The notes below the pieces were generated by a model. That model was not told the origin of the DNA. It saw nothing but the letters and a program-made list of their open reading frames with translations, and did not search any database. A stretch of DNA of 64,000 bases from a bacterium (GTDB lineage: Bacteria > UBA10199 > 2-02-FULL-50-16 > JAJFLM01). This document shows, in pieces, positions 668-48,664 of this stretch. Position numbers and translations under genes: made by a program. The stretch lies in the NCBI GenBank assembly GCA_965216315.1, contig CBDCFN010000015.1, positions 96,001 to 160,000 on the forward strand, in the 5' to 3' direction. The number at the start of each line of letters is the position of its first letter. Position 1 is the stretch's first letter.

Positions 668-3600
668 ATGAGGATAAAGAAGCTCGAGCTGCAAGGCTTC
701 AAATCTTTCGTCGATCCGACGATCATCGACTTTGACCTCCCTATCGTGGGGATAGTGGGCCCGAACGGCTGCGGCAAATCCAATGTCGTCGATGCCATTC
801 GCTGGGTCATGGGCGAAATGTCCGCCAAACACCTTCGTGGTAAGGCGATGGAAGACGTGATTTTCAATGGGTCTTCCAACCGGGCTCCACTTGGCATGTC
901 GAGCGTCTCGCTGACCTTCTCCACCGAAGACGGCATGGTGCCCCCGCAGTACAGCGGCTTCACCGAAGTCACCGTCACGCGGCGTCTCTACCGTTCCGGC
1001 GAAAGTGACTACATGATCAACAAGGTTCCGTGCCGCCTCCGCGACATACTCGATCTTTTTCTAGGAACGGGGGCCGGGACCAAGGCCTACTCCATCATCG
1101 CGCAAGGACAGGTCGATTTTGCGATCAATGCCAAACCGGAAGACAGACGCCGTCTCATCGAAGAAGCCGCAGGGATCTCTAAGTTTAAAACCCGGCGGGA
1201 TGCGGCCGTGCGCCGCATGGAATCGACGCAAAACAACTTATTGCGCTTAGGTGACATCCTCGCCGAGATTAGACGTCAAATTCGTTCCTTAGAACGCCAA
1301 GTCAAAAAAGCGGAGCGGTACAATCGTTATCGCTCCGAACTTCGCGAACTCGACCTTTATCTCTCCTCCAAGAATTACCTACAAAAACAGTGCGAACAAG
1401 GGGAGATGAACGACCTCTTAAAGGAATGGAGCGGAAAGGAAACGACCGCACATAATTCGCTAACGACGCTGGAAACAGACCTTGAAAAAGAACGTCTCGA
1501 ATTGACGGAGAAAGAAACCGAACTGTCGCGTTTTCAAGAACAGATTTTTGAAGTCAGCAATCGATTGCAACTCGCACGAACTCAACAAGAATATAAGGGC
1601 CGTGAAGTCACAACCCTGCAAGAACAATCCACGCGTTGGAAACAAGAATGCGAAGACGCCCGAGAACGAATTCGGATTGTCAATGAAGAGTTGACAGCAC
1701 GACAAGCCGACGCAGGATCATTTGAAGAAATGACTCAGCAGGCCCGAGAAGCCTTAAACGCCGCTGACGCTGCCTGGAAAAAAGCTCAACAAGAACGACA
1801 GGAAAAAGTCGGTCTGCTCGAAAAATGCCGCGAAACCATTACTTCTTATGGACAGAGCTTGGCAACCCTAGAAAGCCGTTATCATGCGGCGCAACAACAG
1901 CTACCGAGTCTCGAGACTCGGCTGAGCCAGGCAGAAAGTGAATGCAATAAGATTAAAACCCAGACAGAAGAAGCGGCTCGCACTATTCAGGAAACGGAAG
2001 AAACATTAGCAACCCTTACAGGTCAGCATACAACAATGCAGCAACACCGCAGTGAATTAGAAACAAAATTCAATGACGGAACCCGCATTCGTGAAGAAAA
2101 ACAGTATGAGCTAACGAGTATACAGGAAGAACTCGTCAATAAACGTTCGCGGCTGCGTTCACTGGTGGAATTAGAAAAGAGTTTGGAAGGATATGGCGAA
2201 GGGGTTCGCTCCATCCTGAAGACACGGCGGGGCAAAGGGATCCATGGACTCGTCGCGGATGCCATCGAAGCCACTCCGGAATATGAAGCCGCCCTCGTCG
2301 CCGCGCTTGGTGAAAAACTCCAGTACATTATTGTTGAGAGTCAGGAACAAGGACTCGAAGCGATCGACTATCTTAAAAAAGAGGCCGGTGGCCGTTCAAG
2401 CTTTCTTCCTAAAGAAGTCAAGACACAGTCTCATCCCCTGCCTGATGCAGGCACCGGCATTATCGGTCCCTTACGTCGCTTTGTGCAGCTTAAACCCGAG
2501 TTCGCTCAACTAGCCGACTACCTCTTCGGAGATGTCCTGCTCGTCGAAGATTTAGAGACGGCGATTGGCCTCTGGGAAAGTGGCCACCAGTCGCTTCGCT
2601 GCGTCACTCTCAGCGGAGACCGGGTCGATCCTTCGGGCGTGATCGCCGGAGGACGCCCTGGCAAGGGATCTAGTAATGTCCTCGCTAAACGCCGCGAAAT
2701 TGAAGAATTGCGCCGTGAGGTCGTCCGCCTCGAACAAGAGATCGGACTCAAAGACGACTCAGTCAGCCAACTGGAAGGGACGCTCTCCGGCATTGAACTC
2801 GAACGAAAGGCCCTGGAACAAGAGTGGCAAACAATCGAAGTCAATAAAGCCAAACTTGAACAAGATCTTTCTCACCGCAAAGATATGAAGCAGCGTTTTG
2901 ACGAACAGATAGCCGCCCTTCAGGCAAACATCGGTGAGTTGCGTAAAGATATTTCAATAAATAAAGAGAGCCAAGCCGAGCTGGAGCAAAAACAGACTGA
3001 AAACAAAGATCAGACCGCTGAGCAACAAGCACGTCTTTTCAAGGTCCAAGAGGAAGTCAGTACAAGCGATGAGCTTGTCAATACCAAGCATGAAGCCTTA
3101 ACGGAGGCTAAGGTCCGCATGTCATCCGTTCAAGAGCGAGAACAAGCCTATCGTGCTGACCTGGCGCGACTTGAAAGCACTAAAACGGACTTGAATGAGC
3201 GCATTGAAACCCGGACTCACGAAATTAAAGAGGCAGCTGACAAGGTAACGCAGCTCCAACAAGATCTCGAGGGCCTAGCCAAGCAGATCACAACGGAAAC
3301 GGCGTCCAGCGATGAGCTCAAAAAAGCACAGGCGGAAATCCAAGAAATTTTCAACCGCAAGCGGACCGTCCTCCAGGAACATGAATTGAGGGTACGTGAT
3401 TTTCGCAAGCAACTTGATCTGGCCAAAGAGCATACCTCAGATCTCAAAATTTCGCTGACCCGACTCGAAGGAGAGGTTAATTATTTAACCGGACAGATGA
3501 GCGAAAAATATTCCGTTATCCTCCCCGACATCGCTGGGGAATGGTGTGACAAGGTTCCCGAGTGCGAGGACCCGGACACGCGTGCAACAGAGCTCCGCGA

Positions 3601-4240
3601 AAAACTCGACAAAATGGGCCCCGTCAACATGGAAGCCATCCCTGAATTCGAAGATCTCCAGGAACGTGAGGTCTTTTTAACAGAGCAATATAGCGATCTC
3701 GAAGTCTCCATTGAAAATCTTCACAAAGTCATCCGCAAGATTAACCAGACGACTCGCCAACGTTTCGAAGAAACTTTCAAACTCGTTCAAGAAAAATTTA
3801 CTCAGGTCTTCCCGCGACTCTTTAAAGGCGGCCGGGCTGAATTACGCTTGGAAGACCCGAATGACATGCTCAACACCGGCGTCCAGCTCATGGTCCAACC
3901 GCCAGGAAAACGCCTGTCCCATATTTCATTGTTATCGGGGGGGGAGAAGGCGCTGTCGGCGGTCGCTTTCATCTTCTCAATCTTTCTCGTCAAGCCGTCA
4001 CCGTTCTGCATCCTCGACGAAGTCGATGCCCCCTTGGATGATGCCAACACGCGCCGTTTCCACAAACTCATCCAGGACATGACGGATCGGACTCAATTCA
4101 TCCTGATCACGCATAACAAGATCACGATGGAAATCTGCAACAGCCTCTTCGGCGTCACGATGCAGGAACCGGGTGTCTCTAAAATCGTCTCCGTCCACCT
4201 CGATAAGGTCGACGAAATGCCTAGAGCCGCTTCGGCGTAA
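668..4240 (+). CDS. smc: Chromosome segregation protein SMC
   Basis: GFKSF, Walker A GPNGCGKSN, coiled coils with hinge, LSGGEK signature, LDEVDAPLD. Confidence 0.98.
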   Translation: MRIKKLELQGFKSFVDPTIIDFDLPIVGIVGPNGCGKSNVVDAIRWVMGEMSAKHLRGKAMEDVIFNGSSNRAPLGMSSVSLTFSTEDGMVPPQYSGFTEVTVTRRLYRSGESDYMINKVPCRLRDILDLFLGTGAGTKAYSIIAQGQVDFAINAKPEDRRRLIEEAAGISKFKTRRDAAVRRMESTQNNLLRLGDILAEIRRQIRSLERQVKKAERYNRYRSELRELDLYLSSKNYLQKQCEQGEMNDLLKEWSGKETTAHNSLTTLETDLEKERLELTEKETELSRFQEQIFEVSNRLQLARTQQEYKGREVTTLQEQSTRWKQECEDARERIRIVNEELTARQADAGSFEEMTQQAREALNAADAAWKKAQQERQEKVGLLEKCRETITSYGQSLATLESRYHAAQQQLPSLETRLSQAESECNKIKTQTEEAARTIQETEETLATLTGQHTTMQQHRSELETKFNDGTRIREEKQYELTSIQEELVNKRSRLRSLVELEKSLEGYGEGVRSILKTRRGKGIHGLVADAIEATPEYEAALVAALGEKLQYIIVESQEQGLEAIDYLKKEAGGRSSFLPKEVKTQSHPLPDAGTGIIGPLRRFVQLKPEFAQLADYLFGDVLLVEDLETAIGLWESGHQSLRCVTLSGDRVDPSGVIAGGRPGKGSSNVLAKRREIEELRREVVRLEQEIGLKDDSVSQLEGTLSGIELERKALEQEWQTIEVNKAKLEQDLSHRKDMKQRFDEQIAALQANIGELRKDISINKESQAELEQKQTENKDQTAEQQARLFKVQEEVSTSDELVNTKHEALTEAKVRMSSVQEREQAYRADLARLESTKTDLNERIETRTHEIKEAADKVTQLQQDLEGLAKQITTETASSDELKKAQAEIQEIFNRKRTVLQEHELRVRDFRKQLDLAKEHTSDLKISLTRLEGEVNYLTGQMSEKYSVILPDIAGEWCDKVPECEDPDTRATELREKLDKMGPVNMEAIPEFEDLQEREVFLTEQYSDLEVSIENLHKVIRKINQTTRQRFEETFKLVQEKFTQVFPRLFKGGRAELRLEDPNDMLNTGVQLMVQPPGKRLSHISLLSGGEKALSAVAFIFSIFLVKPSPFCILDEVDAPLDDANTRRFHKLIQDMTDRTQFILITHNKITMEICNSLFGVTMQEPGVSKIVSVHLDKVDEMPRAASA

Positions 4241-4249
4241 CCGAGACCT

Positions 4250-7200
4250 TTATCCGGTTTTTTTGAATAACTCAGGTTGGCTTTGATCAATATCTTGAAT
4301 GACCGCCGGGTCAAACCACTGAGCCAGCTTTTCTTTCGTCCACGACTTTTCAAGCACAAGATAACGAATGACTTCGATAGAAGCACTTCGACTTAAATAA
4401 CTTAGTTGTTCACGCAGCGGTGTATTTGGATCGATGCGATTGACATTCCTCAAGCCAAAGCGAACATCGACCGCAGCATCAGAGTCATCCGGATAAATCA
4501 GCTTTCCATCAACAAAGCGCGGTCGACTACTCTTGGTACCCGAAGGGATTACCGCACGTTGGCCTCCCGGCTTCACATCCACGTGAGGCCCGACGAGCTC
4601 TTGAACTGCGTTAAGCGACCAGCCTTTGTTTAAAATGAGATAGGTCGCCAGGTCACTTCGATCGCTAAGCGATGAGTTCGTGACGAGATCTTTTGCAGAT
4701 ACGGAACGGCGAATCGGATTCCGGGCGTGGAACCACTCAAAAACATCAATGTCACGACTCGGAAGACCACTCTCGGCACGACGCCGACTCAAGATTCCGA
4801 GAGCTTGCCGCCAACTATAGGGCTTGCTTGAATGAGGGACATGCAAGCCTTCAGCATCGATCAACGAAACCAAAGGCTTGTTTGCTGCCATGTGCGGATT
4901 CGCAATCATAAACTGCAAATCACCAGGATTTAGTCCTAGGTCAATAAGTTGGGTATGGAGTCTCAATAGCTCCACAACAGTATGTTCCGTAATCCAATGA
5001 CCATCAACCTTTTCCCAATGAGCTCCGTCAGCAACATTGGTAATAATACCGGGACGATCCATCACCCGCGTCATGCCGAGAAACTCCACGTTGCCGAGAT
5101 CGCTATTTTGAGCCAACTCTAACAAGTTCGTTTCATTGGCGATCTGCGCCGGCGTTGCAAAGCCATGATCACGCACCTTAATTGCTACGATACGTTTCTC
5201 CCCGTGCGGGCTCGTCATAACCCCCTCATACACCGTTGCGGCTGAACCCTGACCGAAAACTCTCCCGGTAAACTCGACCGATCCGCCGTTATGCGTCGGC
5301 GCCACATGACCCTTGATGCCTGGCAGAATGGGGTAATAAAAATTATCCCCGACTTTGGTCGCGGTCGTTAGGGAATTATAAAAATTCGCATCCTTGTAAT
5401 AATGAGCTCCGAAGCGATTGAGGTTCGCATCATTTTTTTGACTCGGATAGATTTCATTGCTAGGCCGAATAACGATCTTATGCCAACGCGTCGCTCGTTC
5501 ATCAAGCACCGGCACCATGCCGTCAGCATCCGGATCCGGTGCCGCCACCCGTACCCGAACAACAGCTTGTTGCGCATGACCTTTACGATAGGCCGCATAG
5601 AGGCGGTGATGGCCGTTTTCGACATAAGGAATTCCATCAATGATGACGACCTCGGGAATCTCGGAAGAAATCTGATTATTGCGGTAGGCATCTACCTGGG
5701 CTCTGAAAACGACCTCTTGCGTTGGAACCACATGAGAGAGAGGCAGATCAATGTATTGACCCGCTTTGAAGTGACTGTAATTAGGTGCAACGGCAAGATC
5801 GGCATCGGCTGTCTTACGATACAGTTCGCGTGAATACTGCATACGCTCCCACATCTGCGCTTCCATTTGATTGGGGAGCGCATTCTTCGTGACGCGACCG
5901 ATGACACTATAGCCAGCCATCCGAATCGTGCTGGCGCCGAGGCGTTCCCAGTATGTGGATGCGTCGCTATGTCCAAGCATCACTTCAGTCAGATAAGTAG
6001 AAGTCGTGGCCAACTGGACCTGGACCGCAAACATCCCGGCTCCATCTGCCGACTGCAACGCGACCCGGCGCATACCGGCACTCCCTTTGATGGCTTTTTC
6101 AAGGCCGGCTTTTTTGCCCAGGGCTTTCCAAGCGGAACCGCCACCATGAAAGGCAAAGCTCATCAGGAAATCCATGCCGGCATTCTTGTGACTAAAACGC
6201 CCGGTCAATAGGGCCTGTTGCCCTTCACTGACGTAGGCCTCGGTCACGGCCCCTGCCGTCAAGACCGTACCACGTGCAATAAATCCTCGAACGCCGCCCT
6301 GAGCCGATGCGCGGGCCACAAACGGAATACTTCCAACGCCCGCGCGAACGAGGGCTCCGGCGCCCATACTCGCGGGCAGCGTGACGACCGTCATCACGAC
6401 TTCTTTATAAATAAGGTAACGCGTCTCGTGAGAGATATTCCAGACTCGATCCATCGGGTCCTTCATGTCTTCATACAGAGTCCACGCTTTTTTGGTCAGT
6501 TCGTCGGTCTGACCCGACTCCACCTTGGCTTCAAGAAATTCAAAGGAACGCTTGAGGATGCGACGATCGATCTCTCCTTGGATCGTCATCTCGACCATGG
6601 CCTTCATCTCGGCATCGCTGGGTTTCCCACCTGGGTAGCGCTGTTTAAAAAGTTTGGGCTTGGTCTCTTTTAAGGTCTTGAGCTCTTCTTCCAGCCGTTC
6701 GCGCACTTCTGACTTGCTAAAATCACTATCCACCCGCACGTCCTTGGCAATTTCATCACCCTCTCGGGCCAGAACATCGGCCTTAATCGTATCGATATCC
6801 TTGCCGAATAGCTCGGCCAAGAGCTCAGCGGAAACTTGATAAGACCCGTCCCCACGATTCAACGATTCCGCTAACTCAAGAATCTGCACACGTCTCCCGT
6901 CCGTTTGACTGGCAGCTGCCGCAAGGCCTTCATAGGTCCACAGGCCTAATAAATTGTTGAAGTCGGGGTCTTCCGGGAAAAAACCCCTGTGATCCACCTT
7001 AAATTCACGGATCGCTTCATCGAGTGTCGCGCACTTCTCAGCACCTAAATTCGCTTTCAAACGGTAGAGTGTTGTCTTCAACCCCTCATTCGTAATATCG
7101 GCGCTTAATCCCCAACCGATGGCGTGATTACTGCGGTCGTCATGAAGCATCGCATTCTGACCCAATAACTTATCGATATATTGAATCGTATGTTGGCTGA

Positions 7201-8401
7201 GGATTTCGCGTGCCTCGCTGCGCAAACGTAGTAGCTCGGGATCTTCCGTCTCTTTGGTCGCATTGTTGACGTCCATGTAGGCCAACATCGCACGCGGCAT
7301 ATCATTTTCGAGCATAGCAACGCGGGCTTCATGATACCGTTTGACGGTCGCATGCCGCGCCGTCGTGATCGAACGACGATGATGAGCCGTCATCAGCTGC
7401 TTTTGAACACCACGCAGAATCGACAGTTGGTCGGCAGAATCGATCTCATTAAAGCCATCCGCCAACTCAAGCGTCACGTACCCATCGGCATCGGCTACGA
7501 TCGAAACATACGCGCTATATTCACCAAGGTCATCCTGGCTCAACTCGGATGCATTAGCGCTTTCGGTCAGCGGGATTATGAAATTCTCAATGGCGAGGCG
7601 CCGGCTATAGCTTTGAAAATCCTTGGCAAGGGCATCGGCTTTCGCCTTATTGCCCAGTGCCCGGTTGAGCTTGATCTCTTCGTTAAGCAGTGGAAGAACC
7701 ACCGTGGGATCATCTAGGCCCGTGGCGGCTTCACGTTGTGCTGTCGTCTCTTCAAGTAACTGGGCTAGTTGCTGATCATAGGCATTGGCGATACTCACAT
7801 AGCATTCGTCGACGATAGCCGCTTGCCCAAAAGCATCACGAGCCTCACGATAGTTACCCAGGCGATGATTCATGCACCCTAAGACCTCATACGACTTTAC
7901 ATCATCTGGATTTCCCTTGATTGAGGCACGCGTCACATCAAGTGTTGATTTGATTTCATGAAATGCATTCTTGCCATCACCGGATCGCATTGCCAATTGA
8001 GCCCGTGCGTGAGCGAGGTCGCGGACTAAATAACGGCGCTCGCTCGCCATATGAAGATCCAACTCGGCAAATTTTTGATAAGCAGCCTCAGTGATATCCA
8101 GTTGGACACTCGCAGCGGCAACATCCCCGGCCTGAATCAATCGATTCAATTTAGCGAGTTCCGTTTCGACGTGAGATGCTGGAGTCGAATCGAGGGGAGC
8201 AAAAAGTTTATTCGGTTCGGCTCCCATCAAGCAATCCGGCGCTTCCGGCGTCTCTTCGGAGCAATAAATAGACTCATCCGAGGAGGTGAATGTAGATGAC
8301 GTCATCTCATTTTCGAGTGCTACCGCTTCCTCGCGGGAGTCCAATACGGGTCCGTAGACGAGAATTTCGTTATCCAGTTTGTCAGAAGCTTCTCTTACCA
8401 T
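4250..8401 (-). CDS. 1383-aa multidomain protein: TPR-like N-terminus, Gly/Ala-rich hydrophobic segment, ParB-like domain, kinase-like domain (toxin/effector-like)
   Basis: TPR-like YEVLGCMNHRLGNYREARDAF; ParB-like PEVVIIDGIPYVENGHHRLYAA; kinase-like FGQGSAATVYEG, VAIK, DLQF, LIDAEG; SD GGAGGAGG. Confidence 0.6.
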   Translation of the reverse strand: MVREASDKLDNEILVYGPVLDSREEAVALENEMTSSTFTSSDESIYCSEETPEAPDCLMGAEPNKLFAPLDSTPASHVETELAKLNRLIQAGDVAAASVQLDITEAAYQKFAELDLHMASERRYLVRDLAHARAQLAMRSGDGKNAFHEIKSTLDVTRASIKGNPDDVKSYEVLGCMNHRLGNYREARDAFGQAAIVDECYVSIANAYDQQLAQLLEETTAQREAATGLDDPTVVLPLLNEEIKLNRALGNKAKADALAKDFQSYSRRLAIENFIIPLTESANASELSQDDLGEYSAYVSIVADADGYVTLELADGFNEIDSADQLSILRGVQKQLMTAHHRRSITTARHATVKRYHEARVAMLENDMPRAMLAYMDVNNATKETEDPELLRLRSEAREILSQHTIQYIDKLLGQNAMLHDDRSNHAIGWGLSADITNEGLKTTLYRLKANLGAEKCATLDEAIREFKVDHRGFFPEDPDFNNLLGLWTYEGLAAAASQTDGRRVQILELAESLNRGDGSYQVSAELLAELFGKDIDTIKADVLAREGDEIAKDVRVDSDFSKSEVRERLEEELKTLKETKPKLFKQRYPGGKPSDAEMKAMVEMTIQGEIDRRILKRSFEFLEAKVESGQTDELTKKAWTLYEDMKDPMDRVWNISHETRYLIYKEVVMTVVTLPASMGAGALVRAGVGSIPFVARASAQGGVRGFIARGTVLTAGAVTEAYVSEGQQALLTGRFSHKNAGMDFLMSFAFHGGGSAWKALGKKAGLEKAIKGSAGMRRVALQSADGAGMFAVQVQLATTSTYLTEVMLGHSDASTYWERLGASTIRMAGYSVIGRVTKNALPNQMEAQMWERMQYSRELYRKTADADLAVAPNYSHFKAGQYIDLPLSHVVPTQEVVFRAQVDAYRNNQISSEIPEVVIIDGIPYVENGHHRLYAAYRKGHAQQAVVRVRVAAPDPDADGMVPVLDERATRWHKIVIRPSNEIYPSQKNDANLNRFGAHYYKDANFYNSLTTATKVGDNFYYPILPGIKGHVAPTHNGGSVEFTGRVFGQGSAATVYEGVMTSPHGEKRIVAIKVRDHGFATPAQIANETNLLELAQNSDLGNVEFLGMTRVMDRPGIITNVADGAHWEKVDGHWITEHTVVELLRLHTQLIDLGLNPGDLQFMIANPHMAANKPLVSLIDAEGLHVPHSSKPYSWRQALGILSRRRAESGLPSRDIDVFEWFHARNPIRRSVSAKDLVTNSSLSDRSDLATYLILNKGWSLNAVQELVGPHVDVKPGGQRAVIPSGTKSSRPRFVDGKLIYPDDSDAAVDVRFGLRNVNRIDPNTPLREQLSYLSRSASIEVIRYLVLEKSWTKEKLAQWFDPAVIQDIDQSQPELFKKTG

Positions 8402-8427
8402 GTTCGCACCTCCTCCCCCCTACTATC

Positions 8428-8442
8428 GCAATCGTTGTGCCA
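8428..8442 (-). promoter_or_regulatory. Sigma54 (-24/-12) promoter for the 1383-aa gene
   Basis: Minus strand TGGCAC-AACGA-TTGC, 26 nt upstream of ATG, with SD in between. Confidence 0.8.
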
Positions 8443-8588
8443 GAGTCGGGTAGGAGAAAAAATTCTAACTGTGGATTATTATAGGGCTAATTTTGATGCA
8501 CCGATTTGCCGCAGCGCACTATGCCCCTAGATGGGTCCGGTGGTCACGCGCCAAAACGTACACTTTTTATACGAAATAAACGATGCCG

Positions 8589-11435
8589 CTAGGCTCGGGC
8601 CTGGCGCTTTTTTGGCGCGGACGGCAGGACTTCTTTGAGATATTGTCCGGTATAGGACTTGCGATGTGCGGCGACTTCCTCCGGTGTTCCTTGAACCACG
8701 ATGGTCCCGCCTCCGTCACCGCCCTCCGGGCCAAGATCAATGACCCAGTCGGCCGTTTTGATGACATCGAGGTTGTGCTCGATGATAATGACGGTATTCC
8801 CGCCTTCGACAAGACGATCAAGAACCTCTAACAACATATGAATATCCGCAAAATGCAGCCCCGTCGTCGGCTCATCGAGGATGTAAAGTGTCTTTCCTGT
8901 CGAACGCTTGGAAAGCTCTCGAGATAACTTGATACGTTGGGCCTCCCCGCCTGACAAAGTTGTCGCGGCCTGACCTAACTCCACATACCCAAGCCCAACG
9001 GCAACCAAAGTATCCAACTTATTACGGATCGCCGGAATCTTAGCAAAAAATTCATGCGCCTCTTCGACCGTCATCTTGAGGACATCGGCAATGTTCTTGC
9101 CTTTATAAAGAATCTCTAAAGTTTCACGATTAAAACGCTGGCCACGACAGACTTCGCACTCCACATAGACATCGGGAAGAAAATGCATCTCAATCTTGAT
9201 AATGCCATCCCCTTCACAGGCCTCACAACGCCCGCCTTTAACATTAAAAGAGAATCGCCCCGGTTTATATCCGCGCAGCTTGGCCTCGTTGAGACTCGCA
9301 AAAAGATCACGTACCGGTGTAAACACTTGCGTATAAGTTGCCGGATTAGATCTTGGGGTGCGCCCAATCGGTGACTGATCGATATCGATCACTTTATCGA
9401 TAAACTCGAGTCCTTCAATAGAATCATGTTCTCCTCCGGGATCACGCGCCCCGTTGAGCTGATGTGCCAGGGATTTATATAAAGTGTCATTGATCAACGT
9501 ACTCTTTCCGGAACCCGATACTCCGGTAATGCAAATGCGTAAACCCAAGGGAAACTCGACATCAACGGATTTGAGATTATTTTCGCGCGCACCTTTAAGC
9601 ACCAACGCCTTTCCATTCGCTAAATGGCGCTTGGCTGGGATGGGAATGCTCTTTTTCCCGGAGAGATACTGCCCGGTCAGCGACTTCGGATCCGCCATAA
9701 TGTGCTCCGGCGCTCCTTCGGAAACTATCTTACCACCGTGAACGCCGGCACCTGGCCCCATATCGATAAGATAGTCCGCTTCTTGCATCGTGTTTTCATC
9801 ATGTTCAACGACGAGGACGGTGTTGCCTAGATCACGCAGGCGGGTCAGGGTTGCAATGAGCCGATCGTTATCGCGTTGATGGAGCCCAATTGACGGCTCA
9901 TCAAGGATATAGAGCACCCCGACAAGACTAGCTCCAATCTGCGTTGCTAAGCGAATTCGTTGCGCCTCGCCGCCTGACAAACTCCCGGCCCGACGATCCA
10001 GCGTCAAATAAGCCAACCCGACATTATTCATAAAACTGAGGCGATCGCGAATTTCTTTTAAAATGCGTTCTGCAATCTTGGCGTCTTTCTTGCTCAATTT
10101 GAGTTTATCAAACCACTCCAGCGCTTTGCCGATCGAAAAATGGGTCACATCATCGATATTCAATTTGCTTATCTTAATGGAAAGAGCCTCATGACGCAGC
10201 CGCGACCCCTTACAGGTCGGGCACTTTTGCACCGTCATGTATTTCTCTAATTCTTCACGAATCACTTCGCTATCGGTTTCATGGTAGCGACGATCCAGGT
10301 TGGGAATAACCCCCTCAAACGCTTCACTGTAATGCGAAACCTTGTCCCCTAAATCGTATTCGAAATCGACTTTGTCCTTGCCTCCATAGAGAATCAATTT
10401 TTGGATCTTCTTGGGCAACTTATTAAATGCCGTGTAGACATCAAATTTATAGTGCTTGGCGAGACTTTCAAGCTGGTTCCAGTAATAATCTTCGTAACGA
10501 CCACTCCAGGGGCGAATCGCTCCATCGCGCAAAGATTGTTCCGGTTGTGGGACAACGCTTTTCTCGTCAAAAAACTGCTTAACCCCTAAACCATTACAAT
10601 CAGCACAGGCTCCCTGCGGATTATTGAAAGAAAACATCTGCGGGTTGATATCTGGATAGCTGACACCACAATCGATACAAGCAAATTTCTCTGAAAACAT
10701 CGCGGTTTCACCGCCAAGCACTTCAACCTTAACAAGCCCCTCCGCATGACGTAACGCTGTCTCCAGTGAATCCGCTAAGCGAGCTTCGATACCATCCTTT
10801 AGAATGAGTCGATCAACAAATAGGTCAATGTCGTGACGCTTTTTCTTATCGATCTCGATTCTGTCGGCTAAATCATAAATTTCTCCATCAACGCGAACAC
10901 GTACAAAGCCCTGTTTGGTGAACTCGCGTAGTTCTTTGCTGTATTCACCTTTTCGACTTCGCACAATGGGCGCCAAAATATGGAGCTTACTGCCTTTCTT
11001 GAATTTCAGCACCTGATCGACCATTTGACTGATTGTTTGGGCAGAGATTGTCTTTCCGCATTTAAAGCAAAAGGGTTGGCCAACCCGCGCAAAAAGTAAG
11101 CGCAAATAATCATAGAGCTCCGTCACCGTTCCAACGGTAGAGCGTGGATTGTTACTTGTTTTCTTTTGTTCGATTGAAATAGCCGGAGAAAGCCCCTCAA
11201 TCGTGTCGACCTCAGGCTTGCCCATCTGTTCCAAAAACTGCCGGGCATAGGCCGATAACGATTCTACATAGCGTCGCTGTCCTTCGGCATAAAGGGTGTC
11301 AAACGCGAGTGAAGACTTTCCTGACCCCGAAAGCCCCGTAATTACTACGAGCTTATTCCGAGGAATCGTCACGTTGACGTTCTTGAGGTTATGTTGTCTG
11401 GCACCCCGGACAATGATTTCTTGTGGCTCTGTCAT
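8589..11435 (-). CDS. uvrA: Excinuclease ABC subunit A
   Basis: [23 protein letters not shown], two ABC modules, zinc-finger CxxC pairs. Confidence 0.98.
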
Positions 11436-12240: not shown

Positions 12241-13077
12241 TCAAGGTTCTGTCGTCCCTTCCGCAAGCGGATCATCTTGCTCGTCCGGATCCAATTTATT
12301 ATCGTCATCCTGATCTTCGAATAAATCAGCCGACAGTTTTAAATTATTAATAATTGCTTGATGCGTTTCTGTATTATTGTCTTTATCGATCAATATGATC
12401 GGCTCCTCATTTTCATCGAAGCTCACCTCAAGCGATGCGGTATTCAGGGCTGTACTTACAAACCATTGGTCCAAATCAAAAGCGATAAAGAAACGATCTA
12501 ACGAACCTGCCGCATTGATATTAAATCCACCCTCTTCATTTTCTAGCTTAAATTCTTCATCGACTTCGAGCGACACGCGAAATTTTAGTCCATCGCCACG
12601 CGTCCCCTCAATAAGAACACTCTTACCCGCGATCGTATCGCCTTCGCTCACATTACTATCAAGTTTCTTCAAAATCAGCTTGATACGACAGTACGCACCG
12701 GCAGGTATATTGATTTCTTCCAACCCCGAAACAGTTCCCGTTTCGAGCAGGTCTACAACGAAAGGCCCATCAAAACGCAACGGATCCTTCTCCTCTTGAC
12801 TCAACTCCTGAGATACGGGCTCGCTATCTTCACAGCCAAGCGCAGGACGGAAACGTATTTGATCTAGAACAATCTGTGCTGTCGTGACATCCAGACCGCT
12901 GACAGTCAGATCTCCCCATTGCAAGGCCTGTAACAACGATGATTGGTAACCGACGATGCTAATAGCGACACCACCGGTGGGCTTTTTAGGATTCCCTATT
13001 TCCGATCCGCCCTGGCCGCAAGCGACATACGAAAGGATAAATAGGACTAAGCTGGAGTATGAAAGAAATGTCTTCAT
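12241..13077 (-). CDS. Putative lipoprotein, DUF4382-like
   Basis: Lipobox YVAC; GPFVVDLL, IPAGAYCRIK and IAFDLDQW resemble DUF4382; acidic tail. Confidence 0.6.
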   Translation of the reverse strand: MKTFLSYSSLVLFILSYVACGQGGSEIGNPKKPTGGVAISIVGYQSSLLQALQWGDLTVSGLDVTTAQIVLDQIRFRPALGCEDSEPVSQELSQEEKDPLRFDGPFVVDLLETGTVSGLEEINIPAGAYCRIKLILKKLDSNVSEGDTIAGKSVLIEGTRGDGLKFRVSLEVDEEFKLENEEGGFNINAAGSLDRFFIAFDLDQWFVSTALNTASLEVSFDENEEPIILIDKDNNTETHQAIINNLKLSADLFEDQDDDNKLDPDEQDDPLAEGTTEP

Positions 13078-13928
13078 GACGTTTCCTTTCGTTGTAACTT
13101 GGTTAGGGGGAACATTTGAATATTGACCTGAGCGACTTCCTCAGGCTCACTCGTAACCGAAACAAGCTTCAGGATTTCCTGTCTGAATTCATGAATTTTC
13201 TGTTTTAATACAGGAATCTGATCTCTTGTAATGCCAAGCGTCATGGCACTGACATCCCGCATTTCCGAATCAACCTCTTCAAGAATATCCTGACTGAGCG
13301 CGAGTAAGTTCTTATGATAGTTGAATACCGTTAAAGATTGAACTTCTGAACCGGTCGAAACAACTGAACTTGATTGTTTCCATTGGCCATCTGGAGCCAT
13401 TTCAAGAAGACCTAATTTTTCTAAAAGTTCGAGGGATTTTTGAACCTGTTGTTCAGAGATTTCCGGGTAGATCCGTTTAACAATCCAGGCCGGCGTCCCA
13501 TCAAAATCTTTTGCCGTAGCCAGTTCACGAATTACCGTGTGGTACCAACTAGAACAATACTCATATTGATGTTTCTCAATGGGTTTAAGCTGAGTATATT
13601 TTCGCGATTGTAAGAGACGCTGATAAAATTTGTCTTTCTCTTCGTGAGTCTTAGCCTGATTAAAACAAACAAGGTTATGAAAGAATTCCGTTTCTTGTTT
13701 ATTAAGCTTGAGACCTGTGGAAAATTTTACAATACTCTCTTCAGTGAGATTGCGCTTTCCTTCCATGACGAGTTTGTAAAAATTCGTCGACCGAAACCCA
13801 GCTCGTTCTGAAAAAGTACGAAATGAAAAAGAGGCACGCGTCTGCTTCTTTTTATCATACCAGGCCCGAAGAAATTTTCGATAATCGAGATATTTGAAGA
13901 TATTGACCGGTGAGGAGGGTCGCCGCAT
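13074..13928 (-). CDS. TIGR02147-family protein (HTH plus DUF4423)
   Basis: IFKYLDYRKFL, FSFRTFS..AGF, GKRNL, WYHTVIREL, C-terminal QVNIQMFPL. Confidence 0.85.
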   Translation of the reverse strand: MRRPSSPVNIFKYLDYRKFLRAWYDKKKQTRASFSFRTFSERAGFRSTNFYKLVMEGKRNLTEESIVKFSTGLKLNKQETEFFHNLVCFNQAKTHEEKDKFYQRLLQSRKYTQLKPIEKHQYEYCSSWYHTVIRELATAKDFDGTPAWIVKRIYPEISEQQVQKSLELLEKLGLLEMAPDGQWKQSSSVVSTGSEVQSLTVFNYHKNLLALSQDILEEVDSEMRDVSAMTLGITRDQIPVLKQKIHEFRQEILKLVSVTSEPEEVAQVNIQMFPLTKLQRKETS

Positions 13929-35554: not shown

Positions 35555-35570
35555 TGGCACAAGACTTGCT
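35555..35570 (+). promoter_or_regulatory. Sigma54 (-24/-12) promoter
   Basis: TGGCAC-AAGAC-TTGCT, preceded by an AT-rich tract. Confidence 0.85.
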
Positions 35571-48648: not shown

Positions 48649-48664
48649 AGCAAAGCCCGTGCCA
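48649..48664 (-). promoter_or_regulatory. Sigma54 (-24/-12) promoter
   Basis: Minus strand TGGCAC-GGGCT-TTGCT, 15 nt before ATG. Confidence 0.8.

Follow-up and report, generated by a model that had tools for sequence, protein, structure and literature searches.

A sigma54-linked modular protein of a UBA10199-type bacterium combines ParB-like and kinase-like modules with an apparently undescribed helical chassis

A 64,000-nucleotide stretch of DNA from a UBA10199-type bacterium (positions 96,001 to 160,000 of contig CBDCFN010000015.1, assembly GCA_965216315.1; hereafter the window) was analyzed, with a focus on the gene of a 1383-residue protein, P0001. We conclude that P0001 is probably a polyvalent effector put into non-self cells. 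The reading starts from what was observed (conservation of a long helical segment, the chassis; swapping of the tails behind it; the folds and catalytic motifs; sigma54 sites; no linked immunity gene), and export, membrane insertion, target and activity are its predicted parts. A literature search returned no description of the chassis family in the accessible parts of the sources found; the family is apparently undescribed, and P0001 appears to be a variant of the modular-effector theme on this chassis. An initial annotation, made from the letters alone, had described a sigma54-driven, polymorphic-toxin-like protein without an adjacent immunity gene; its open reading frame (ORF), sigma54 site, 9-bp distance to smc and domain order were all confirmed.

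The P0001 gene and its two catalytic modules

The gene occupies a slot between the convergent smc, whose stop ends at 4240, and the co-oriented uvrA upstream (Table 1). A contig from a public run covers 3500-9300 with 0 differences to the window, of which it may be the source, and another sample from that study yielded a single contig, 3500-6093, that joins the smc junction, the kinase module and the ParB module. Direct reading of the sequence located GGAGGAGG 6-7 nt before the ATG. No terminator-like site was found in 4000-4600. In a genome of the same family (G001) the smc-uvrA interval (L165:2339-3824) holds three small unrelated genes; the slot is therefore variable, and P0001 does not keep its place as a syntenic housekeeping gene would. 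By reading, the three genes are nitroreductase-like, nucleotidyltransferase-like and HTH-like. The acidic N-terminus of the initial annotation was recovered (23% D/E in residues 1-80), and residues 1-76 matched only themselves among 150 family proteins.

Table 1. Features of the P0001 locus (window positions) and the type III export cluster of the same genome (G000)
Feature	Position	Strand	Details
P0001, 1383-aa modular protein	4250..8401	(-)	ORF reading and contig support
Sigma54 -24/-12 promoter, TGGCACAACGATTGC	8428..8442	(-)	TGGCAC-N5-TTGC consensus; motif match
Shine-Dalgarno GGAGGAGGT	8408..8416	(-)	6 nt upstream of ATG; direct sequence reading
Acidic N-terminus, residues 1-76	8174..8401	(-)	no Sec-type hydrophobic core; not conserved
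TPR-like helical chassis part, residues 77-473	6983..8173	(-)	Pfam TPR_12 E 1.6e-4, below cut-off
Conserved chassis core, residues 475-860	5822..6979	(-)	all-helical; motif YxDMKDP...EVVxTAVTxP, then Gly/Ala-rich helices
Gly/Ala-rich helices, residues 666-845	5867-6406	(-)	C-terminal end of chassis core
ParB/sulfiredoxin-fold module, residues 875-975	5477..5779	(-)	PT and GHHR (G930-R933) invariant in 5/5
Atypical protein-kinase-like module, residues 993-1218	4748..5425	(-)	GQGS loop, K1075, E1090, catalytic D1161 (D-x-Q loop), metal-binding D1182
C-terminal region, two copies of a ~45-residue unit	4253..4747	(-)	YLILNKGW 4619-4642; YLVLEKSW 4340-4363
Gap to convergent smc stop	4241..4249		9 bp; no room for a downstream gene
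Non-flagellar type III export cluster	G000:C16:339083-377062		SctV, SctN, SctJ-, SctL-, SctQ-, SctR/S/T-like and TPR chaperone-like genes

Profile comparison and modelling support a ParB/sulfiredoxin fold with a GxxR nucleotide-binding motif for residues 875-975, where the initial annotation had pointed to the ENGHHR motif (5603-5620). An eight-sequence profile of the module was aligned by hhalign with 25 ParB_N domains of relatives with a probability of 90.4 (E 1.4e-6, score 39.4), compared to a best score of 16.1 in 30 column shuffles. In an AlphaFold2 model of residues 465-985 the mean predicted local distance difference test score (pLDDT) was 82.6, lower across the ParB part. The best Foldseek match of this model in the PDB was sulfiredoxin 6ky4 at prob 0.82, although its E was 0.24, and in BFVD ParB/Srx proteins were matched at prob 0.87-0.97. 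Pfam gave ParBc_2 only, at E 0.017, for the P0001 module, and three of five aligned members match, the best at 0.0025. Matches at E<=0.01 were obtained in 6 of 93 genomes of the class; the two weakest proved on inspection to be something other than ParB modules, and one lies behind a different Gly-rich scaffold. Two more lie inside proteins labelled metallophosphoesterase-like by motif reading (L063:946-2379 and L064:541-2226). Identity as a chromosome-partitioning ParB, a CTPase with GERRxRA, HTH and dimerisation domains, was rejected: P0001 has GHHR, not GERR, and the only match of PF02195 in the genome is another gene.

By alignment, the kinase-like module has the residues expected of a protein-kinase-like enzyme: a Gly loop, the beta-3 Lys, the Glu of helix C, and both the catalytic and the metal-binding Asp. 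Among 19 homologues D1161 and D1182 are invariant (19/19) and the beta-3 Lys is kept in 16/19; the D+2 position is occupied by Q (13 sequences), E (4) or N (2). Since the catalytic residues are kept across the homologues, the unusual NPGDLQF loop (4910-4930), also pointed out in the initial annotation, is a family trait and not decay. The module profile matched both lobes of RIO2 (E 5.9e-5), PknB (1.6e-4) and, ranking below these, HopBF1 (4.3e-4) in the PDB. HopBF1 (6pwd/8hoe) and RIO2 (6hk6) resemble it in their compact kinase core; the RIO2 HGDFNEFN loop, however, is three residues longer than the xGD(L/F)Q of the P0001 family. The Pfam PK_Tyr_Ser-Thr match (E 0.019) is below cut-off and a structure model of the module (pLDDT 41) is not usable. 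HopBF1 presumably carries a D-x-Q loop as well. The module was found in 16 of the 93 genomes, mostly in long ORFs. A Hanks-type Ser/Thr kinase, defined by HRDxKxxN and DFG, was considered and rejected, as P0001 has NPGDLQF and DAE. The module is thus best predicted as a likely active atypical kinase.

The C-terminal duplication, called weak in the initial annotation, is weak on its own: 2/2000 shuffles scored as high as the two P0001 copies (regions picked by eye). A third copy, however, was seen in a different protein of the genome, again behind this kinase module (0/2000 shuffles).

The helical chassis and its family

Residues ~77-860 of P0001 have no Pfam or PDB match that passes a cut-off. 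The TPR-like helices of the initial annotation are backed by the TPR_12 match, which is weak. Its hydrophobic Gly/Ala-rich stretch is present as Gly/Ala-rich helices, which turned out to be only moderately hydrophobic, with one 19-residue window >1.2, at 1.56. At E<=1e-3, residues 77-473 recur in 28 of the other 149 family proteins, and a paralogue in the same genome shares them too.

Searches with the chassis recovered 185 clusters, 47 of them at E<=1e-30, mostly of long proteins (1000-6000 aa). With a mutual coverage of 60% required, the 69 tails behind the chassis formed 65 groups, so that C-terminal polymorphism is family-wide and the homologues are far from invariant. The initial annotation had proposed a search for proteins that keep the N-terminus and change the C-terminus, and one was found: the paralogue has residues 57-859 in common with P0001 and an unrelated tail. 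A third protein of the genome combines a P0001-type kinase with the tail domain of the paralogue, and ParB and kinase modules occur on other scaffolds too.

The chassis was found in 20 of the 93 class genomes. Among 30 family proteins looked up, three distant members carry a taxon name, one each of Ca. Gracilibacteria, Ca. Peribacterales and Ca. Peribacteraceae; the Peribacteraceae contig measures ~1 Mb. A profile built from 74 distant members only finds P0001 at E 1.6e-37 (best E of reversed sequences, 0.45); the homology is therefore reciprocal. When 113 cores were placed in a quick tree, the three Gracilibacteria/Peribacteria rows fell in a 69-row branch with support of 87, which is not strong; it contains 0/12 rows of the UBA10199-type lineage, and the taxon of its other 66 rows is presumed.

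Annotated tails comprise kinases, PP2C, FHA, ADP-ribosyltransferase (exotoxin type, E 7.7e-17), Fic (two), RelA/SpoT (1.3e-12), HopA1-like (1.5e-7), GGDEF, DnaJ and LRR domains and calpain-like and M48 peptidases. FHA and PP2C are the commonest of these. Such signalling-type tails are what would be expected of a membrane-tethered signalling hub of the producing cell, in which the helices would hold the protein in the cell's own inner membrane, while the enzyme modules (kinase and ParB here; PP2C, FHA or GGDEF in relatives) would regulate its own physiology, e.g. on host contact. We consider this alternative to the effector reading unlikely, though it is the best of the rivals; the same tails indicate that "toxin" may be too narrow a label for the family.

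Several further observations concern related proteins. About ten more giant ORFs of the genome have modules in common (G000:C16:1297824-1317149, C16:1804947-1821701, C15:476778-484268, C16:731623-738360, C9:1520-4993), most with a Gly/Ala-rich segment and several with a sigma54 site. Five of the giant ORFs share a ~500-aa domain with what we take to be an HD-like motif. At L002:5722-11588 (G000:C16:1285721-1291587) a 908-aa ORF ends in a chassis-like segment (E 6.4e-10) and is followed after 80 bp by an ORF of 1019 aa that bears the kinase, so that the pair may be a split version or one made of two genes; the next ORF, of 412 aa, presumably carries a HAD-like DxD motif. An unannotated family of 790-920 aa with Gly-rich hydrophobic helices adjoins chassis genes, mostly tail-to-tail (L024, L025, L033, L036, L037, L038, L069, L071, L074), and has a 421-aa homologue at G000:C15:8778-10043. 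The chassis genes at L027:4336-10002 and L028:5210-9685 are each broken by a stop at a similar position of the TPR-like half, reflecting either a split or an assembly error.

Promoter, missing immunity gene and export apparatus

The window contains three matches to the sigma54 consensus versus 0.09 expected, and 0/100 shuffles reach three; a sigma54 gene is present in the genome. TGGCAY-N5-TTGC was found at the 5′ end of 17/25 chassis loci, a set in which the window is counted along with four near-identical loci and a locus with only 16 bp upstream, versus 81/2395 genome ORFs (a 3% background) and 13/80 genome ORFs of at least 1000 aa. By these motif counts a predicted sigma54 promoter is a trait of the chassis family. 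The other two window sites, 35555-35569 (+) and 48650-48664 (-), precede ORFs of 206 and 105 aa. Elsewhere in the window, at 12241-13928 (-), the gene of a lipoprotein-like DUF4382 protein is immediately preceded by that of a DUF4423 protein (E 1.5e-42).

An adjacent immunity gene is absent at the P0001 locus and, as a rule, family-wide, in agreement with the initial annotation. Seven of 25 family loci run off their contig and one is fragmented; at the 17 assessable loci the next gene is convergent in 11 cases and co-oriented in six (77, 296, 440, 917, 1548 and 1684 aa). The 77-aa ORF, 369 bp away, is the only small co-oriented one (1/17), and the 296-aa ORF is possibly a partner. The genes after 14 kinase- or ParB-bearing ORFs include no common small partner. 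No Pfam or NCBIfam match to pre-toxin or trafficking domains (RHS, FilH, LXG, PT-VENN, PT-TG, HINT) was obtained in the scanned members.

These results bear on the possibility of a classical polymorphic toxin for kin competition, with immunity encoded elsewhere or by the convergent neighbour. The conserved N-terminus and variable C-terminus fit such a toxin, PMC3482391 lists ParB and kinase domains among the toxins of polymorphic systems, and a distant member gave a weak ESM Atlas lead to PT-TG (0.86, tool threshold 0.9). The rarity of small downstream ORFs, the lack of a shared partner and of pre-toxin, RHS, HINT or LXG matches, and the identity of the convergent neighbour, which for P0001 is smc, nevertheless make it very unlikely. 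The polymorphic-toxin-like character proposed by the initial annotation is thus retained for the conserved front and variable tail, but not as membership of the classical group, as immunity gene, pre-toxin and secretion domain are all missing.

Judged by hydropathy, a start resembling a signal peptide is present in one of the 71 members with a full core; 19-residue hydropathy reaches at least 1.8 in 12/71 (median 1.57). Genome searches revealed no flagellin, type VI secretion sheath, contractile sheath or VirB4. A type II secretion system (T2SS) is present, and the single full secretin is located in its operon. In the type III cluster (Table 1) SctV is above the TIGR01399 and SctN above the TIGR02546 cut-off; SctU is encoded elsewhere, and one protein of the genome exceeds the SycD/LcrH chaperone cut-off. 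The cluster also encodes a FliA-type sigma factor and FHA/TPR proteins, together with sigma54-linked orphan genes that lack annotation, and two genes beside it carry sigma54 sites. SctV/FlhA is present in 91/93 class genomes and flagellin in 12/93, which suggests a near-universal needleless-type system in this uncultured lineage. Export of the chassis proteins of this lineage by the flagellin-less apparatus is, taken alone, a tentative proposal that we would put a little short of an even chance.

Least probable of all is a surface-displayed protein for adhesion or digestion, acting outside cells like the giant membrane proteins of Omnitrophota: large size, TPR-like helices and the enzyme domains borne by the predatory Omnitrophota proteins (10.1101/2023.11.21.568195) speak for it, but P0001 has no signal peptide and no SecA-like or adhesin Pfam match, and kinase and ParB folds, which need nucleotides, suit the cytoplasm. 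A weak LysM match was seen in one distant family member.

Proposed mode of action and relation to known systems

As a polyvalent effector, P0001 would be expressed under sigma54 control and leave the producer without a Sec signal peptide, most likely through the class-wide type III apparatus. The Gly/Ala-rich helices may form a membrane-insertion unit, soluble in the producer and inserting in the membrane of another cell. Since the cargo needs ATP or another NTP, the ParB-type hydrolase and the kinase would act in the recipient cytoplasm, the former likely hydrolysing ATP/NTP or nicking DNA and the latter likely phosphorylating target proteins. Since an immunity gene is missing, the recipient is probably a non-self cell, with a bacterial prey or host as the most likely candidate. 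By analogy, RelA/SpoT and GGDEF tails of relatives hint at bacterial targets, and HopA1-like and LRR tails make eukaryotic ones possible.

A number of results weigh against this proposal. Among annotated tails, FHA, PP2C, kinase, GGDEF and DnaJ domains outnumber classical toxin domains; 58/81 scanned family proteins have no non-TPR Pfam match at E<=1e-4, and HNH-, REase- or deaminase-type Pfam matches are missing among the scanned proteins. Sigma54 sites also precede many genes with secreted- or lipoprotein-like N-termini, so the promoter is not effector-specific. An SseC-family translocator was not found in the genome, and the P0001 gene has no chaperone gene next to it. Because SctV is near-universal and the chassis is present in 20/93 genomes, their co-occurrence is uninformative on the route. 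Gracilibacteria and Peribacteria are not known to have a type III secretion system, in which case type III cannot be the sole export route of the family; these Patescibacteria members argue against a chassis bound to a single apparatus.

With polymorphic toxins, including Tox-ParB (PMC3482391), the P0001 family shares a conserved N-terminus, variable enzymatic C-termini, ParB and kinase cargo and a hydrophobic stretch before the cargo; it differs in the lack of an adjacent immunity gene or a known trafficking or pre-toxin domain, and tandem modules, many signalling-type tails and sigma54 control are its own features. Polyvalent proteins of phages and conjugative elements (PMC5512222) are alike in having several effector domains, mosaicism, ParB, kinase, ADP-ribosyltransferase and RelA/SpoT cargo and, as predicted for P0001, delivery to another cell. 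Unlike them, P0001 is chromosomal (smc-uvrA) and has no MPTase, ArdC or MuF hub among its Pfam matches, the hub being the helical chassis; no PHROG match to P0001 was obtained at E<0.01. P0001 would function like a polymorphic toxin or a polyvalent protein and is a member of neither class, because it has no immunity gene or trafficking domain and no mobile element.

The ParB fold serves as an ATPase toxin in CdiA-ToxB (10.64898/2026.05.05.722872), where, as in P0001, it is cargo with GxxR; the Arg is essential in ToxB, and its counterpart R933 is intact. ToxB, however, follows VENN in CdiA and is accompanied by cdiB and cdiI, none of which P0001 has. A needleless type III system (T3SS*) is required for prey lysis by Myxococcus (PMC12075869), and there, as here, a type III sorting platform and export gate occur without flagellin. 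In contrast to Myxococcus T3SS*/Kil, no Tad platform gene was found here besides T2SS GspF. The giant proteins of Omnitrophota (10.1101/2023.11.21.568195, PMC12419801) are likewise large and multidomain, combine TPR with enzymes and come from uncultured bacteria described as predatory; they are, however, often tens of thousands of residues long, with many transmembrane helices and SecA-like domains, whereas chassis proteins mostly have 1000-6000 aa and one moderately hydrophobic chassis.

More tentatively still, the chassis may be an unrecognised, self-contained membrane-crossing delivery module common to two unrelated uncultured lineages, UBA10199-type deltaproteobacteria and Gracilibacteria/Peribacteria, carrying interchangeable enzymes (kinases, phosphatases, ADP-ribosyltransferases, Fic, RelA/SpoT, GGDEF and ParB) into the cytoplasm of bacterial hosts or prey without immunity genes. 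Such a cross-lineage module would define a new class of polyvalent host-manipulating effectors. The module, if real, would be a candidate answer to how host-attached Patescibacteria reach the interior of their hosts and act there. PMC12075869 describes predatory bacteria whose needleless type III system has unknown effectors, and the chassis family bears on that question. It supplies a defined, well-modelled unit of ~390 residues with dozens of natural cargo swaps, its tails, mostly without a Pfam match, are a pool of candidate new enzymes, and it opens a way to study how this little-explored uncultured lineage lives.

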